NCBI GenBank assembly: GCA_040289885.1
Contig: PSLZ01000005.1
Location: forward strand, 26,598-90,597
From: Armatimonadota bacterium
GTDB lineage: Bacteria; Armatimonadota; HRBIN16
Reading direction: 5' to 3'
DNA length: 64,000 nucleotides
Shown: positions 12,030-41,068 of the stretch, piece by piece
Layout of the letters: each line of letters opens with the position of its first letter
Numbering within the stretch: the stretch's first letter is position 1
Program-made: the position numbers and the translations under genes
Notes under the pieces: generated by a model
The model's database searches: none
Told to the model about the DNA's origin: nothing
Seen by the model: only the letters and a program-made list of their open reading frames with translations

Positions 12030-12935
12030 ATGAGCACCAACAACCCGGTCAACCGAAGAGGAAGCTCGCAGGGCACTCCGACCCTAACGCCGAACCGCAA
12101 GCCGGCGTCATCGGAGGCGCCTTCCCTGCTCAACCGGCTGACGCGCGTTGCGTTGCTCACGCCAGAGGAAGAGCAGGAACTGGCGGAGCGTGCTCGCAAG
12201 GGCGATGAAGAGGCGCGCCAGAAGCTGGTTGAAGCCAACATGCGCCTGGTGATGAACATCGCCAAACATTACCGCAACGCGCTCGTCCCGTTCGAGGACC
12301 TTGTGCAGGAAGGTGCCATCGGGCTGATGAACGCGGTGGAGCGGTACGACCCCTCCAGGGGCTATCGCTTCAGCACCTACGCGACGCACTGGATACGGCA
12401 GGCGATCGGGCGGGCAATAGATAACAAGGCGAAGACGGTGCGTATCCCCGCACACGTTGCCGAACAACTGCGCCGGATGGAACGCGAGCGGGAACGCCTG
12501 CGCCGGGAGACCGGCGATGAGCCAAGCGTCGAACAGCTGGCGAAAGCGATGGGCGTGTCGCCTAAGAAGATATTGCAGCTCCAGCAGGCGGCACAGGAGC
12601 CGTTGTCGCTCGATATGCTAGTCGGCGAAGAGGAAGATACCTCGCTGGGGTCCCTGATCCATGACCAGAATGTGCGCGACCCCGAAGAGGTGATGCTGGA
12701 GCGCGAACGACGCAAAATGCTGGACGAGCTCCTGGAAACCGAGCTCACCGAACGTGAACGACAGGTCATCATCCGCCGGCTGGGCTACGGCGACCAGGAT
12801 GAACAGGTCTTACAGGAGATAGGAGAGGCGCTGAAGATCTCGCGCGAACGGGTGCGCCAGATCGAAGCGCAAGCCATGCGTAAACTCAAGGACGCGGCTA
12901 AACGTCGGGGTTTACGCGAATACCTTCTGCAGTAG
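12030..12935 (+). CDS. RNA polymerase sigma factor, sigma-70 (RpoD/SigA) family, group-2-like (regions 1.2-4.2, no region 1.1)
   Basis: 301 aa; region 2 FSTYATHWIRQAIGRAI; region 4.2 TLQEIGEALKISRERVRQIEAQAMRKL; RBS GAGGAA. Confidence 0.88.
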   Translation: MSTNNPVNRRGSSQGTPTLTPNRKPASSEAPSLLNRLTRVALLTPEEEQELAERARKGDEEARQKLVEANMRLVMNIAKHYRNALVPFEDLVQEGAIGLMNAVERYDPSRGYRFSTYATHWIRQAIGRAIDNKAKTVRIPAHVAEQLRRMERERERLRRETGDEPSVEQLAKAMGVSPKKILQLQQAAQEPLSLDMLVGEEEDTSLGSLIHDQNVRDPEEVMLERERRKMLDELLETELTERERQVIIRRLGYGDQDEQVLQEIGEALKISRERVRQIEAQAMRKLKDAAKRRGLREYLLQ

Positions 12936-12964
12936 CGGTACTTTTTACCGCCTGTCTCCCCTAG

Positions 12965-13000
12965 CGGCACGAGAGTTTCCTCTCGTGCCGTTCGCCTTCT
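12965..13000 (+). terminator. stem-loop terminator downstream of the sigma factor gene
   Basis: cggcacgagag-tttc-ctctcgtgccg followed by ttcgccttct. Confidence 0.55.
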
Positions 13001-13084
13001 ATCACACGTGCCATTAAGAGGTTTCGCTCCGCCTGCCACCGAAAATAACAGACAGAGTCCCCCGTAGAAGCGAGGAACAGAGCC

Positions 13085-15070
13085 ATGCAGAAATCCAGTT
13101 CCGAACCCAGATGGCAAACAGCAACCGCCAAAGCCTTTCATCTGCACGAATGGACGTTCAGCCTCCAGCCATCGGGCAACCCCTTCTCCCCCGCTGACAA
13201 CGACATCACCGCGGAGATTCGCCTGCCAACAGGGGAGACGATACGTCAGCCCGCCTTCTGGGATGGCGATAACACGTGGAAGGTACGGTTGGCTCTGCTT
13301 CGCTCCGGTCGTATCCATTGGAGACTGCTAAAGAACGGCTCCCCGCTGTCGGTGTCGGCGTGGGTGGAAGTGAAACCGATATCGTCACAAGCGACATTGG
13401 GCTTCGTTCGCCGGCACCCTCGCCTCAAGCAGTTTACCACCGACGCCGGCAAAACCTTCTATCCGATCGGGCAGAACGTCGGGTGGAGAACGCCGAGCAC
13501 CGACTACCCCCTCTTCTTCGAGCAGATGTCACAAGCGGGCATGAACTGGGCGCGGATATGGCTGTGCCATTGGGACGGTAAGAACCCGGACTGGGTCATG
13601 AGCAAGCGGATGGAACCCGGCTGGCTGGATATGGAGGTCATTCGTCGCCTCGAGAAGATCGTGCACCTCGCGGAAAGGTTCGGTATTTATATCCAGCTCA
13701 CCCTCCAGCATCACGGACAATACTCCACCCGCACCAACCCGAACTGGGCAGAGAACCCCTGGAACAAGCAGCACGGAGGCTTTCTCGACACCCCCGAACA
13801 GTTCTTCACCCATCCTCGCGCCCTGGAGCTCACGCGCCACAAGTACCGCTACCTCGTTGCGCGATGGGGATACTCCCCGCATCTCATGGCATGGGAACTC
13901 TTTAATGAGGTGGAGTGGACCGATGCTGCTGCCAACGGTAAATGGGATGTTATCGCCCAGTGGCACCGCGAGATGGCACGCTTCCTCCGCTCAATAGACG
14001 TGCATCAACATCTGATAACCACCAGCTCTGCCATGGATGTTCCCAGCCTGTGGGTGGAGATGGACTACTACCAGCCCCATTATTACGTGCCGGATATCGC
14101 GGGCACGCTGTTCGAAATGACACCTGCGCGGAGGAATAAACCCATCTTCATCGGCGAGTGGGGTGGTGCGAACCCGCGACAGTGGGGCGATGAAGCCTTC
14201 CTTCGACAGGGACTGTGGGTCGGCGTGATGCGCGGACTGGCGGGAGGGGCGCAGTGGTGGTCCTGGGAAACCACCGAAGCACGCAAGTGGTACGCCCAGT
14301 GGGCATCCCTATCGCAGTTCTTGAAGATGGCGGGCTTTGTTTCCGGGAATCTCTGGCAGCCCATCTCCGCACAGGTGATGTCGAAGGCACGTGCGCCGTT
14401 CCGCTTCTCGCCGGGGGGCGGATGGGAAAGCACACAGCGGTACCGCTTCATCGTGCCAACCGATGGCTCCGCTATCGAGGGATTATCGCTCCTCTCGCGG
14501 TTCATACAGGGCGAGTCGCACCGCGACATGTGTCGGGAGCCTGTGGTGTTCGAAGTGGAGTTCGCACAGGCTGGAAGATGCACGCTACATATCGGCACGG
14601 TTGCCCGTAGCGGCGCTGGCATTATTGTCAGGCTGGACAACGAGATAGTCGCCCAGGAACGGTTCTCCTCCGCACAACGGGATACCTTCGTGAACCGTGA
14701 GATCACCTTCCCTGTGCCAGCAGGCAAGCATACGATTTCCGTCTGCAACCCAGGACCCGACTGGTTTACACTGGACAGCGTGACGCTGACGCCCTACGCA
14801 CCGCCAAACAAGGTCGCCGTTTGTGGAGATGGACAAAACGCCATGTGGTATCTGTGGCGCGAGCAACCGGTGGACGCGTCGGTCACGTTGAAGATACCGA
14901 GTACTCCACCGGGAAGATATAAGGTTACGTGGTGGAACCCTTCCACTGGCAGAGCGATACACACCGAGACCGTAGCGGTGGCACAAGGAGGATTAGCGCT
15001 GAAGGTTCCCGTGCACGAGCGGGACATCGCCGGCTGTTTGAGCCCTGCGGGGCGCCGAGCCAGCCTGTAA
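13085..15070 (+). CDS. glycoside hydrolase family 5 protein (DUF5060-like N-terminus + GH5 catalytic domain)
   Basis: 661 aa; GH5 catalytic acid/base motif WELFNEVE; RBS GAGGAA; 3' end overlaps the rnpB 3' end by ~20 nt. Confidence 0.75.
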   Translation: MQKSSSEPRWQTATAKAFHLHEWTFSLQPSGNPFSPADNDITAEIRLPTGETIRQPAFWDGDNTWKVRLALLRSGRIHWRLLKNGSPLSVSAWVEVKPISSQATLGFVRRHPRLKQFTTDAGKTFYPIGQNVGWRTPSTDYPLFFEQMSQAGMNWARIWLCHWDGKNPDWVMSKRMEPGWLDMEVIRRLEKIVHLAERFGIYIQLTLQHHGQYSTRTNPNWAENPWNKQHGGFLDTPEQFFTHPRALELTRHKYRYLVARWGYSPHLMAWELFNEVEWTDAAANGKWDVIAQWHREMARFLRSIDVHQHLITTSSAMDVPSLWVEMDYYQPHYYVPDIAGTLFEMTPARRNKPIFIGEWGGANPRQWGDEAFLRQGLWVGVMRGLAGGAQWWSWETTEARKWYAQWASLSQFLKMAGFVSGNLWQPISAQVMSKARAPFRFSPGGGWESTQRYRFIVPTDGSAIEGLSLLSRFIQGESHRDMCREPVVFEVEFAQAGRCTLHIGTVARSGAGIIVRLDNEIVAQERFSSAQRDTFVNREITFPVPAGKHTISVCNPGPDWFTLDSVTLTPYAPPNKVAVCGDGQNAMWYLWREQPVDASVTLKIPSTPPGRYKVTWWNPSTGRAIHTETVAVAQGGLALKVPVHERDIAGCLSPAGRRASL

Positions 15071-15430
15071 GCGGGGTTCTGTGCCCTGCCTGTAAAGGGC
15101 AGGCGGCGGCTATCTCTCTGGGGTGCCGGTTACCCGGCACCTCTAGCGGCTGTACCCGGAGGCTCAGCGGGCCACCTCACGGCCTCCCTATTCAGCCTTG
15201 CTCCCGATGGGGTTTGCCCTGCCAGCGGCATCACTGCCGCTGCGGTGCGCTCTTACCGCGCCTTTTCACCCTTGCCCGCATTCAGCAAACGCTGAACCGC
15301 TGGCGGTGTGTTTTCTGTGGCACTTTCCGTAGGGTCGCCCCTCCCGGACGCTATCCGGCATCGTGCCCTGCGGAGCCCCGACTTTCCTCCCCACCCAAAC
15401 GGGCGAGGCAGCCGCCCGGCTGGCTCGGTG
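15050..15430 (-). ncRNA. rnpB: RNase P RNA, bacterial type A
   Basis: Minus strand reads GAGCCAGCC...GGGAGGAAAGUCGGGGCUCCGCAGGGCACGAUGCCGGAUAGCGUCCGGG...AGAAAACACACCGCC...GGCAAGGGUGAAAAGGCGCGGUAAGAGCGCACCGCAGCGG...GGGCACAGAACCCCGCUUACAGGCUGGCUC, matching universal P4/P10-12/P15/P18 core blocks of E. coli M1 RNA; P1 helix GAGCCAGCC/GGCUGGCUC; -10 TATAAT at 15440-15445 (minus). Confidence 0.9.
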
Positions 15431-15450
15431 CCCAACTTCATTATACCGCA

Positions 15451-16632
15451 CTAAGGATGCGGTGACCATGTGGGCGCGTAGTTATCGCCAGTGCCGTCCG
15501 TTAACCGCCGCGCATCCGAGCCGTCAGCACTCACGAACCACAGGTCGCGCTTGCCGTCCTCGCGGAACTTGACGTAGACCAGGCTCGTGCCTCCCTGAGA
15601 CCACGTGGGTGTGATGGCATTGCCCTTTACGATCAACCGAGGCTCCGGGTCCCCAATCCCCATCACGCCGAGGCCTGCTCGGTCTCTCTCTTCCCCTTTC
15701 ACGCGCCACATCTCGAAGGCGAGATGGGTTCCCTCCGGCGCCCACACCACCGCTCCAGGCGCAAGGTCTCCCTTACTGCTCCATAGCGGTTGCAGAGTTT
15801 CCGTGACCAGGTTATACAACGCGATCGCGTGCCCGATCTGCTTGTTATCGATGATGGTGATGGCTAACTGCGTGCCATCGGGTGAGAGCGCCGTATGTAC
15901 CTCCTGCCCACCGATGAGGGGTTTGGGAAGCTTCTGTGTGTCGGGAAGCGGGACAGGCTGTGCCCCGGACGACGCCTCTTCCTCGTGCTGGTGGTCACGC
16001 CCTGCGCCCTCTCGCCGATAGCGCACTAGCGCATCGCCCCCTTCGGTACGCAGGATGGCGTACACGATTCGCTTCTCGGGGTCGTAGGTTGGCTCGCGAA
16101 ACAGCACACTGCCTCCGAACGTGTTGCGCCACTGCTGTTCCAGTTCGAAGGGAGGCAGAATCTTCTCCGCCTCGCCACCCTCGATATCTACCAGCAGAAC
16201 CTGTCCCTGCAAGAGGAACACGATGTGCTTGCCATCGGGTAGGAACTGGGGCTTCTCCTTCGCCCCAACGCTGACCGTCAGCTGTTGAACCCGCCTGCAT
16301 TCAGGGTCGGCGTAAAATACTTGGGGCACCCGATTATCCCTGTCGGAGATAAACGTGATCAGGCGTCCATCGGGCGACCACGCGGGGTCGGTTTCTGCAG
16401 ATGGGTCCGTGGTGATCTGGCGAAGCCCGCTCCCGTCCGGGCGAATCACCCACAAATCGGGGTTGCCAGCACGGTCGGAAACAAACAGTATCCAGTCCTT
16501 GGTATCGATGTCAGCAGGTTTGACACGGAAGGGATTGAAGTACCGAATCCAGAACATGCCCGCCGCTACCAGCACCACCACTGCCAGCAAGCCCAGCAGA
16601 GTGTGCCTGAACCAGACACGCCGTAGATACAT
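15451..16632 (-). CDS. TolB-like PD40/WD40 beta-propeller repeat protein, N-terminal membrane anchor
   Basis: Repeated PD40 units (DPAWSPDGRLITFISDR; LSPDGTQLAITI; APTWSPHP); N-terminal TM helix; RBS GAAGGGAG before ATG 16632. Confidence 0.75.
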   Translation of the reverse strand: MYLRRVWFRHTLLGLLAVVVLVAAGMFWIRYFNPFRVKPADIDTKDWILFVSDRAGNPDLWVIRPDGSGLRQITTDPSAETDPAWSPDGRLITFISDRDNRVPQVFYADPECRRVQQLTVSVGAKEKPQFLPDGKHIVFLLQGQVLLVDIEGGEAEKILPPFELEQQWRNTFGGSVLFREPTYDPEKRIVYAILRTEGGDALVRYRREGAGRDHQHEEEASSGAQPVPLPDTQKLPKPLIGGQEVHTALSPDGTQLAITIIDNKQIGHAIALYNLVTETLQPLWSSKGDLAPGAVVWAPEGTHLAFEMWRVKGEERDRAGLGVMGIGDPEPRLIVKGNAITPTWSQGGTSLVYVKFREDGKRDLWFVSADGSDARRLTDGTGDNYAPTWSPHP

Positions 16633-16709
16633 CACGCGCTCCCTTCAAATGATTTACTCTCGCCTTTGGCTTTTCGCTCTCAGAAGCGCAGATTCCTGTT
16701 GGCATTGGC

Positions 16710-17330
16710 TCAGTGCAATTGCACGCTCAGGGGACGAGCCAGCGCATCGAAAACGTTGTCGGGATTGTACGGTACCTGCACCAGCAAATGCCGCTCGCCC
16801 GGATTAGCGATGAAGAACGCCATGCCTCGCGCGAAACTCAAGCCATCTGGCGCACGCTCTGATATCAGGCGCAGTTTGAAGAAGCGCGGTAACTGACCGG
16901 GCCGGATGCTACCCCGCACGTCTTCAATCAACCGCCCATCCAGTGCCCCGCGTTGACAGTGATAGGCGTAAATGTTCTGATAGCTGATCCAGTCAAAACG
17001 CTCGTACACGACGAACAGCGAGAGCTCCGTAACTTCCCGAATGAAATCCGTGTGGGGCAGTTCGTACAGCCTCTCCAGCAGAGCCAGAGTCTCCTGCACT
17101 CCCACAAAGTGGTGGGCGAACGCTCCCAGCACCCCGGAAAACTCTTCAGGCAGTTCGCGGAACTCGTAGTAACAACCATTGGTGGACAACACCACGCGGG
17201 CGATCTCGTTGCTGAACTCTAGTCCCTCGCCAACCTGTTGTTTGACGTATCTTGCTAGAACCTGTGTCGCCTCTCCGTCAGCCTCTAATTGCTCGATGAA
17301 CCACTCGCTATCCATGGTTACCCCATCCAC
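16710..17330 (-). CDS. hypothetical protein (no recognisable family)
   Basis: 206-aa ORF with protein-like composition, same strand and downstream of glcE/glcF-like genes; GTG start after GGAAGGAAGGG. Confidence 0.5.
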   Translation of the reverse strand: MDGVTMDSEWFIEQLEADGEATQVLARYVKQQVGEGLEFSNEIARVVLSTNGCYYEFRELPEEFSGVLGAFAHHFVGVQETLALLERLYELPHTDFIREVTELSLFVVYERFDWISYQNIYAYHCQRGALDGRLIEDVRGSIRPGQLPRFFKLRLISERAPDGLSFARGMAFFIANPGERHLLVQVPYNPDNVFDALARPLSVQLH

Positions 17331-40981: not shown

Positions 40982-41068
40982 GGAGAGGTGGCCGAGTGGT
41001 TGAAGGCACCGGTCTTGAAAACCGGCAGGCGATGAGCCTCGTGGGTTCGAATCCCACCCTCTCCGCCA
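40982..41068 (+). tRNA. tRNA-Ser (anticodon UGA), long variable arm, CCA encoded
   Basis: Acceptor ggagagg/cctctcc; D-arm gccgagtggttgaaggc; anticodon loop cuUGAaa; T-arm gtgggttcgaatcccac; discriminator G + CCA. Confidence 0.9.

Follow-up and report, generated by a model that had tools for sequence, protein, structure and literature searches.

An rnpB gene for class-A RNase P RNA in an uncultured Chthonomonadia bacterium and its 3' overlap with a convergent GH5 coding sequence

Analysis of a 64-kb window (the whole stretch of DNA considered here) indicates that the minus-strand segment 15433..15050 is almost certainly rnpB, which in this uncultured member of the Chthonomonadia (Armatimonadota) encodes a class-A RNase P RNA of canonical type, some 384 nt long. 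An Infernal cmscan of the window recovered the Rfam family RF00010 (bacterial RNase P class A) at 15427..15052 on this strand with 293.7 bits (E 5e-95), nearly three times the gathering score of 100 bits; the match spans model positions 1-367 of 367 and is not truncated, and the orthologous RNAs score 277-300 bits. An initial annotation had placed rnpB on the minus strand and named a covariance-model search with RF00010 as the means of checking it; the score obtained, far above threshold and beyond chance, bears out that call. The five conserved blocks it listed, the P1 arms GAGCCAGCC/GGCUGGCUC and a TATAAT box (15445..15440) are likewise all found on the minus strand where it had put them. 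The conserved regions CR-I to CR-V (GAGGAAAGUC.GG; ACAGAAA; GGGUGAAA..G.GGUAAGAGC.CACC; GAGCAA..C..AAUAGG; ACAGAACCC.GCUUA) are all present, align with the upper-case consensus of RF00010 and are invariant among the orthologues. The product would be the ribozyme subunit by which tRNA precursors lose their 5' leader, and would partner with an RnpA protein whose gene lies elsewhere. Apart from the overlap of its 3' end with a GH5 coding sequence, a small curiosity of gene organisation, this rnpB is ordinary.

Seven orthologous RNAs, all full-length, roughly 90-95% identical and drawn from MAGs of related Chthonomonadia, support the canonical type-A fold, with helices P1-P18 and a P19 hairpin found. 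In this set the fold comprises 126 pairs with 98.3% of cells paired, and compensatory changes on both sides occur in 17 pairs, as against 0-2 in slid controls; none of 500 shuffles attains the observed pairing values. The compensatory changes are located in P1, P2, P3, P12, P14 (three pairs changed on both sides) and P18 (five such pairs), and P13 is 92.9% paired, while much of the core, P4, P5-P11 and P15-P17 included, is invariant and gives no covariation signal within the seven sequences. The long-range helix P4 of the catalytic core joins 15384-15376 (AAG-U-CGGGG with a bulged U15381, in CR-I) to 15069-15076 (CCCCGCUU, in CR-V), and its 8/8 pairs are standard and invariant in all seven sequences. 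The putative P6 interaction between GGGC of J5/7 (15368-15365) and GCCC of L17 (15172-15169) is complementary in 7/7 with all positions invariant; RNAalifold places the same L17 GCCC in an alternative local stem. The P19 hairpin (15085..15103; CCUGCC/GGCAGG), situated between the 3' strands of P2 and P4, is an insertion relative to the Rfam consensus that keeps six pairs in 7/7 sequences with a loop of varying sequence. In L15 the residues G15156-G15155-U15154 (15154..15156) align with the consensus CGGGUA; the L15 GGU motif binds the tRNA 3'-CCA (PMC9945441), and the tRNA-Ser gene of the window, at 40982..41068, encodes CCA. The cmscan alignment further gives the P10/11 3' strand as GGC-AA-ACCC and a single G (15409) joining P2 and P3; interruption of the P11 stem by a dinucleotide, usually AA, and the linkage of P2 to P3 through one G are hallmarks of bacterial P RNAs (PMC1874661).

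With other class-A RNAs (RF00010), such as E. coli M1 RNA and the Thermotoga maritima P RNA, the present RNA shares P1-P18, CR-I to CR-V, the bulged U of P4, complementarity at the putative P6, P13 and P14 of the S domain, P18, the L15 GGU, the single G between P2 and P3 and the AA interruption of P11. It differs from them in its P1 of 17 pairs, which extends six positions beyond the Rfam model match, in a P12 exceeding the consensus length, in a short P17 and in overlapping a real convergent coding sequence by 21 nt; one P4 pair is G-C here and presumably C-G in E. coli M1. The catalytic core of P1-P5 and P15, as well as the function, are also common to class B (RF00011; Bacillus type). Class-B RNAs have P5.1, P10.1 and P15.1 and are devoid of P13, P14, P16 and P17, whereas all four of the latter helices are present here; these helices, and the fact that the class-A model is the best in clan CL00002, led us to reject a class-B assignment. 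P19 is a known expansion element of type-A RNAs, seen for example in PVC-group bacteria and in Methylacidiphilum infernorum (PMC9945441). In P RNAs without it, a 4-nt linker joins the P2 and P4 3' strands. While the RNA described here resembles the P19-bearing forms in having a hairpin at this position, it differs from them in containing no P16.1 or P18.1, the remainder being canonical, and in belonging to the Armatimonadota rather than the PVC group.

The ends of the RNA were placed by promoter position, covariation and conservation. P1, with its 5' strand at 15417..15433 and its 3' strand at 15050..15067, has 17 pairs, of which four are changed on both sides, and it reaches six positions (15428-15433 on the 5' strand) past the Rfam match, up to G15433-C15050. 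RNAalifold pairs 15433-15430 with 15050-15053 unprompted, and the extended helix covaries, with G-C replaced by A-U at columns 10/393 and G-C, A.C and A-U occurring at columns 11/392. P1 is nonetheless imperfect, with one C.A mismatch in 5/7 full-length orthologues and an A.C mismatch of the extension in several. Since P1 exceeds the Rfam model in length, the bounds of the RNA are shifted to about 15433 and 15050; of the limits first proposed, 15050-15430, the 3' end near 15050 is retained, and the 5' end probably lies at about 15433 instead of 15430. Transcription would start at about G15433, the first base of the 17-pair P1, at the expected distance of 7 nt after an invariant TATAAT, and the 3' end of the RNA probably lies at or just after C15050.

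The first G of the extended P1 lies 6-7 nt, and the Rfam 5' end 12 nt, from the TATAAT -10 box of the rnpB promoter (15440..15445, minus strand), the box noted initially, which is invariant in 7/7 orthologous loci while its flanks vary. A promoter scan recovered TGGTCA-17-TATAAT with 10/12 matches, where 0.1 are expected by chance. The -35-like hexamer TGGTCA (15463..15468, minus strand) is weakly conserved, reading TGGTCG in two relatives (L003 and L004), and four other relatives have a TGn extended -10 instead. It lies within the 3' end of the upstream coding sequence on the same strand, which encodes a PD40/TolB-like β-propeller protein (15451..16635) and whose stop codon TAG (15453..15451) precedes TATAAT by 5 nt. 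At the other end, a consensus scan found no intrinsic terminator after rnpB on the minus strand, and folding of the 146 nt downstream from the RNA 3' end is no more stable than that of shuffled sequences (z = +1.1). The 3' end would accordingly come from processing or factor-dependent termination. A plus-strand terminator-like site at 15290..15305, with a tail, was considered as a terminator for GH5 and dismissed, being just the complement of the conserved J11/12-P12 segment (GAAAACAC).

The convergent neighbour (13085..15070, plus strand) codes for a protein of 661 aa with a DUF5060 domain (PF16586, 38.7 bits; cut-off 27.2) and a GH5 domain of the cellulase family (PF00150, 35.2 bits; cut-off 23.5; profile positions 10-269 of 272). 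The PD40-rnpB-GH5 synteny recurs in relatives. The stop codons of the two neighbours are 380 nt apart as compared with an RNA of about 384 nt; rnpB is thus longer than the gap between them, so that its promoter covers the end of the PD40 gene. On the GH5 side the initial estimate of an overlap of about 20 nt, with the stop at 15070, was accurate: the overlap is 19 nt by the Rfam bounds (15052..15070) and 21 nt (15050..15070) by the 3' end defined from conservation and covariation. The overlap is real: the GH5 frame meets no earlier stop, and the arrangement is retained in each of the ten orthologous loci. On the minus strand the shared segment holds the 3' strand of P1 plus the terminal part of P4, and on the plus strand the last six GH5 codons and the TAA stop, with the P1 3' strand lying antisense to the codons for Gly-Arg-Arg-Ala-Ser-Leu. 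The stop codon itself is complementary to the UUA of the conserved GCUUAC (TAA opposite AUU), and U15069 and U15070, antisense to its AA, close the catalytic P4 helix.

Comparison of ten GH5 orthologues across this boundary suggests which of the two genes shapes the shared DNA. Codons 8-20 from the end (HERDIAGCL.P.) show a conserved protein sequence with a variable third position in most codons, and codons 1-7 are nearly invariant at the nucleotide level, the invariance starting at about 15050. A single synonymous change occurs in the seven overlapped codons, and it is compensated in P1: AGC becomes AGT in L026, with the matching change on the P1 5' strand. The amino acid replacements follow the RNA in the same manner. 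The Ala codon (GCC) of the window and the Val codon (GTC) found elsewhere correspond to C-G and C.A in P1, respectively, with U-A in L024, and a replacement of Gly by Glu in L025 goes with a compensated change from G-C to A-U. RNA structure appears to dictate the sequence of the shared segment, and the GH5 tail G-R-R-A/V-S-L is an addition peculiar to this clade, its residues altering along with the pairs of P1. The C-terminus is the same in every GH5 orthologue of 60-78% identity, and homologues of about 40% identity share only the ...RD[IV]A... motif and then diverge. The idea that the GH5-rnpB adjacency is older than this clade was rejected, as three such homologues of about 40% identity are set in unrelated neighbourhoods, where called genes follow at 3-130 nt and leave no room for rnpB. 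The simplest reading is genome compaction, in which the GH5 frame would have run on to its first stop, the complement of UUA in GCUUAC.

We consider it improbable that the overlap is functional rather than incidental, serving as a coupling device between rnpB and GH5. Read-through from either gene into the other could set RNA levels by transcriptional interference or duplex cleavage, or GH5 transcripts might end at the stable P1 and P19 hairpins, which would then work as a terminator in both directions; mutual termination, or antisense regulation linking a polysaccharide-degrading enzyme to a tRNA-processing ribozyme, are further possible forms of such coupling. Neither gene has a recognisable intrinsic terminator, known P RNA genes are said to overlap no other gene (PMC1874661), and the overlap is identical in size and position in ten lineages with 60-100% GH5 identity, the 19-nt overlap with the Rfam match being retained in 10/10 orthologous loci at GH5 identities down to 60%. 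However, a fixed position is expected anyway once a frame enters an invariant, immovable RNA segment: because the first in-frame stop sits in a universally conserved motif, the GH5 stop cannot drift. Moreover, neither P19 nor P1 has a U-tract after its complement, and compact bacterial genomes often contain short 3' overlaps between convergent genes. If the overlap were functional, it would be a clean natural case of DNA under simultaneous RNA-structure and protein-coding constraint.

Still less probable is that the GH5 coding sequence does not truly reach into rnpB, its tail being either an artefact of gene calling or translated but irrelevant. Homologues at about 40% identity lack the last nine or so residues and end in unrelated tails, and the residues encoded in the overlap (Gly/Glu/Arg, Arg/His, Ala/Val) follow RNA pairing as if the protein were unconstrained there. 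Against an artefact, there is no in-frame stop before 15068 in 10/10 orthologues, so that the ribosome must read to the GH5 TAA, and purifying selection at the protein level, along with synonymous variation, is seen up to codon 9 from the end. A translated tail of no functional importance would agree with the main reading given above; an untranslated one is not supported.

There is next to no likelihood that the region encodes proteins instead of, or besides, the RNA. Three mechanically called open reading frames do lie across rnpB, at 15253..15441 and 15266..15469 on the minus strand and at 14929..15465 on the plus strand, the last being 178 aa long. The initial annotation had set them aside as translations of the RNA, and we concur: none of the three has a Pfam match, the 178-aa frame shrinks to 99-134 aa or is lost in relatives, and the minus-strand frames alter their ends or disappear. 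Indels of one base within RNA loops throw the frames out of register, substitutions are pairwise-compensatory and not codon-periodic, and chance long frames are expected at 68% G+C. All this is consistent with spurious reading frames in G+C-rich RNA-coding DNA, and the three were dismissed as proteins. The notion that this rnpB is a decayed or redundant copy, for which one may cite the restriction of the view to one 64-kb window of a genome that might hold a second copy elsewhere, is equally hard to credit, given the full-length model match with every conserved block intact, the conserved -10 box and the syntenic orthologues that keep pairing via 17 compensated pairs.

In terms of annotation, the locus adds an essential ribozyme gene missed by a track built from open reading frames only, and three calls on that track are to be dropped. 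Known P RNA genes have been stated not to overlap other genes, and at least one metagenomic survey applied 'does not overlap any gene' as its filter for such genes (PMC1874661). A full-text literature search, which was not exhaustive, found no precedent for an rnpB overlapping a coding sequence, and the present locus shows that a no-overlap filter is an unsafe criterion for P RNA genes. Existing knowledge of RNase P is unchanged by this locus, a neat natural instance in which a structured-RNA gene and a genuine coding sequence use the same DNA. With synonymous variation nearly gone and the last residues of the protein tracking compensation in P1, the shared 21 nt appear to show which constraint wins when RNA structure and protein collide.

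Scanning the whole window against Rfam 15 yields two matches above the gathering score, namely the bacterial RNase P class A family (RF00010) and an unrelated tRNA at 40982..41065. The former lies on the minus strand at 15427..15052 and scores 293.7 bits (E 5e-95; gathering threshold 100 bits), spanning the whole model untruncated (positions 1-367 of 367). The initial annotation had pointed to this family, and every conserved sequence block it quoted, together with the complementary arms of helix P1 and a TATAAT, is indeed found on the minus strand at 15050-15450. The presence of rnpB, the RNase P RNA gene, is confirmed far beyond chance. The stretch at about 15433..15050 (minus strand) is almost certainly a working RNase P RNA gene of class A; it is a canonical member of RF00010, a correct and ordinary finding.

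The gene sits between a convergent plus-strand ORF of 661 aa (13085..15070; Pfam DUF5060 and Cellulase/GH5 above the curated cut-offs; hereafter GH5) and an upstream minus-strand ORF matching the PD40/TolB-like beta-propeller in Pfam (15451..16635), whose stop codons are only 380 nt apart (15071..15450). The ENA metagenome contig ERZ1673964 NODE_28 is identical to the window across this region, and the nearest genomes are Chthonomonadia (Armatimonadota) MAGs, with 70-77% amino-acid identity in GH5; one relative bears the name 'Bacterium HR16'. We collected ten distinct orthologous loci, the window included, of which seven hold the full-length RNA (the window, L003, L004, L007, L024, L025 and L026) and the other three (L005, L023 and L027) run off their contigs. 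All ten give RF00010 matches in the same convergent position (277-300 bits when full-length, 95-192 bits when truncated), and the upstream PD40, 201-aa unknown and Fer4/CCG genes are syntenic too. The window's counterpart between the PD40 and Fer4/CCG genes is a 206-aa ORF lacking a Pfam match (16710-17330, minus strand), kept in position at 201-208 aa in all relatives with enough flank. On the other side, five relatives (L023-L027) carry an opposite-strand Band_7 gene between the sigma-70 gene and GH5, joined in three of them by a small RHH_5-like gene; both are absent from the window (12936-13084), where the sigma-70 gene (12030..12935) is directly followed by GH5.

For the secondary structure, base pairs were derived from the cmscan alignment, with a poorly fitting P12 replaced by a longer RNAalifold stem and with an extended P1, a P19 hairpin, P4 and P6 added. 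Across the seven full-length RNAs, the resulting 126 pairs are standard in 98.3% of cells, and in 17 of them both members have changed. Sliding the 3' partners by 1-3 columns leaves 0-2 such pairs, and the observed values were not reached in any of 500 shuffles. Compensatory changes were seen in P1 (4 pairs), P2 (1), P3 (2), P12 (2), P14 (3) and P18 (5). P4-P11 and P15-P17 match the family consensus and hardly vary among these close relatives, where they show just single one-sided changes; hence covariation speaks neither for nor against them. The P4 5' strand AAG-U-CGGGG (15384..15376, minus strand), with a bulged U15381, pairs with CCCCGCUU (15076..15069, minus strand), and the GGGC/GCCC complementarity of a putative P6 is present. 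So are two bacterial hallmarks, an AA interruption of P11 and a lone G joining P2 to P3 (PMC1874661). Loop L15 reads GGU (15156..15154, minus strand); the sole tRNA gene in the window, a tRNA-Ser(UGA) with a long variable arm (40982-41068, plus strand), encodes its 3' CCA. A 6-pair hairpin (15085..15103, minus strand) occupies the site of P19, a known expansion element of some type-A RNAs (PMC9945441). The long P1, long P12, short P17 and P19 all lie inside known type-A variation. At the P1 pair 15060/15423, close relatives display all three states of a compensatory path, C-G (window), C.A (a mismatch, five lineages) and U-A (L024); its 3' base doubles as the middle nucleotide of a GH5 codon (Ala versus Val). 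The RNA (15050-15433) has 68% G+C versus about 60% in the surrounding genome, which, with the 17-pair P1 and P19, might reflect a thermophilic lifestyle.

RNAalifold, unprompted, lengthens P1 past the Rfam match: 15433-15430 pair with 15050-15053, and 15428 with 15055. This extension covaries (alignment columns 10/393 and 11/392), with G-C replaced by A-U in L025. Depending on the lineage, a given position reads G-C, A.C or A-U, and at another, four lineages have A.C and three have G-C. The TATAAT, invariant in all seven loci amid differing flanks, precedes the initial G of the extended P1 by 6-7 nt, placing the expected transcription start at the 5' end of the helix. In the GH5 codons, nucleotide invariance sets in near 15050; all three positions vary in the codon just before (15047-15049). 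From these three features we infer RNA ends at about 15433..15050, a length of 384 nt. The window has a 4-of-6 match to the -35 element (TGGTCA) within the PD40 CDS, 17 nt from the TATAAT, and four relatives show a TGn extended -10. In L007, L024 and L026 the PD40 stop TGA abuts the TATAAT and doubles as the TG of the extended -10 (TGATATAAT); the window (15446-15453) has TAG as the stop, placed 5 nt ahead of the TATAAT, and TGn is missing. No terminator-like element was found after the rnpB 3' end. A terminator-like hairpin with a T-rich tail (CGCTGAACCGCTGGCG GTGTGTTTTC) occurs on the plus strand at 15290-15315, antisense to rnpB and some 220 nt past the end of GH5. This element complements the conserved J11/12-P12 sequence and probably has no meaning.

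Three mechanical ORFs span the RNA, at 15253..15441 (minus), 15266..15469 (minus) and 14929..15465 (plus). None has a Pfam match, and 1-nt indels in RNA loops leave them shortened, shifted or absent in relatives. We reject a protein-coding reading for all three, and the initial advice to discard them was justified.

The overlap with GH5 proposed in the initial annotation is borne out at 21 nt, with 19 nt shared between the Rfam match itself and the GH5 orthologue's end at each of the ten loci. The first stop in the GH5 frame is the TAA at 15068-15070, with none earlier in any of the ten orthologues. Counting back from the stop, codons 8-20 (H-E-R-D-I-A-G-C-L-x-P-x) encode a conserved protein sequence, yet most of them vary at the third position, a pattern that reveals genuine purifying selection on GH5 as far as the RNA boundary. 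In the last seven codons, GGG CGC CGA GCC AGC CTG TAA (15050..15070), the DNA itself hardly varies, and changes within them follow the RNA pairing. Thus, GCC (Ala) in the window versus GTC (Val) in the nine other orthologues corresponds to C-G versus C.A in P1, or to U-A in L024, where the 5' strand has changed too; in L026 a C to U on the P1 5' strand matches AGC to AGT, and in L025 a G to A there matches GGG to GAG (Gly to Glu). In L023, whose contig lacks the 5' strand, CGC to CAC (Arg to His) would convert A.C into A-U. Facing the stop codon is the AUU (15068-15070) of GCUUAC, a universally conserved motif; the codon's two A's lie across from U15069 and U15070, which form the last two P4 pairs. 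GH5 homologues of about 40% identity share ...RD[IV]A... but have unrelated tails beyond it, and sit in other genomic contexts without room for rnpB. Given the lack of an earlier stop, the codon contrast at 15050, the changes that track pairing and these distant homologues, the overlap with a translated GH5 tail is very probably real at the DNA and reading-frame level and, on this comparative evidence, is clade-specific and dominated by the constraint on the RNA. A regulatory role for the overlap is improbable and finds no support; compaction is the most economical explanation, whereby the GH5 frame would run into an immovable RNA and then end at the first stop met there.

A 2007 metagenomic survey reported all known P RNA genes to be free of overlap with other genes and relied on this for filtering (PMC1874661); a non-exhaustive literature search found no described counter-example. 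The one unusual point of this locus is the conserved overlap of rnpB with a genuine CDS, which is a matter of gene organisation and not of mechanism.
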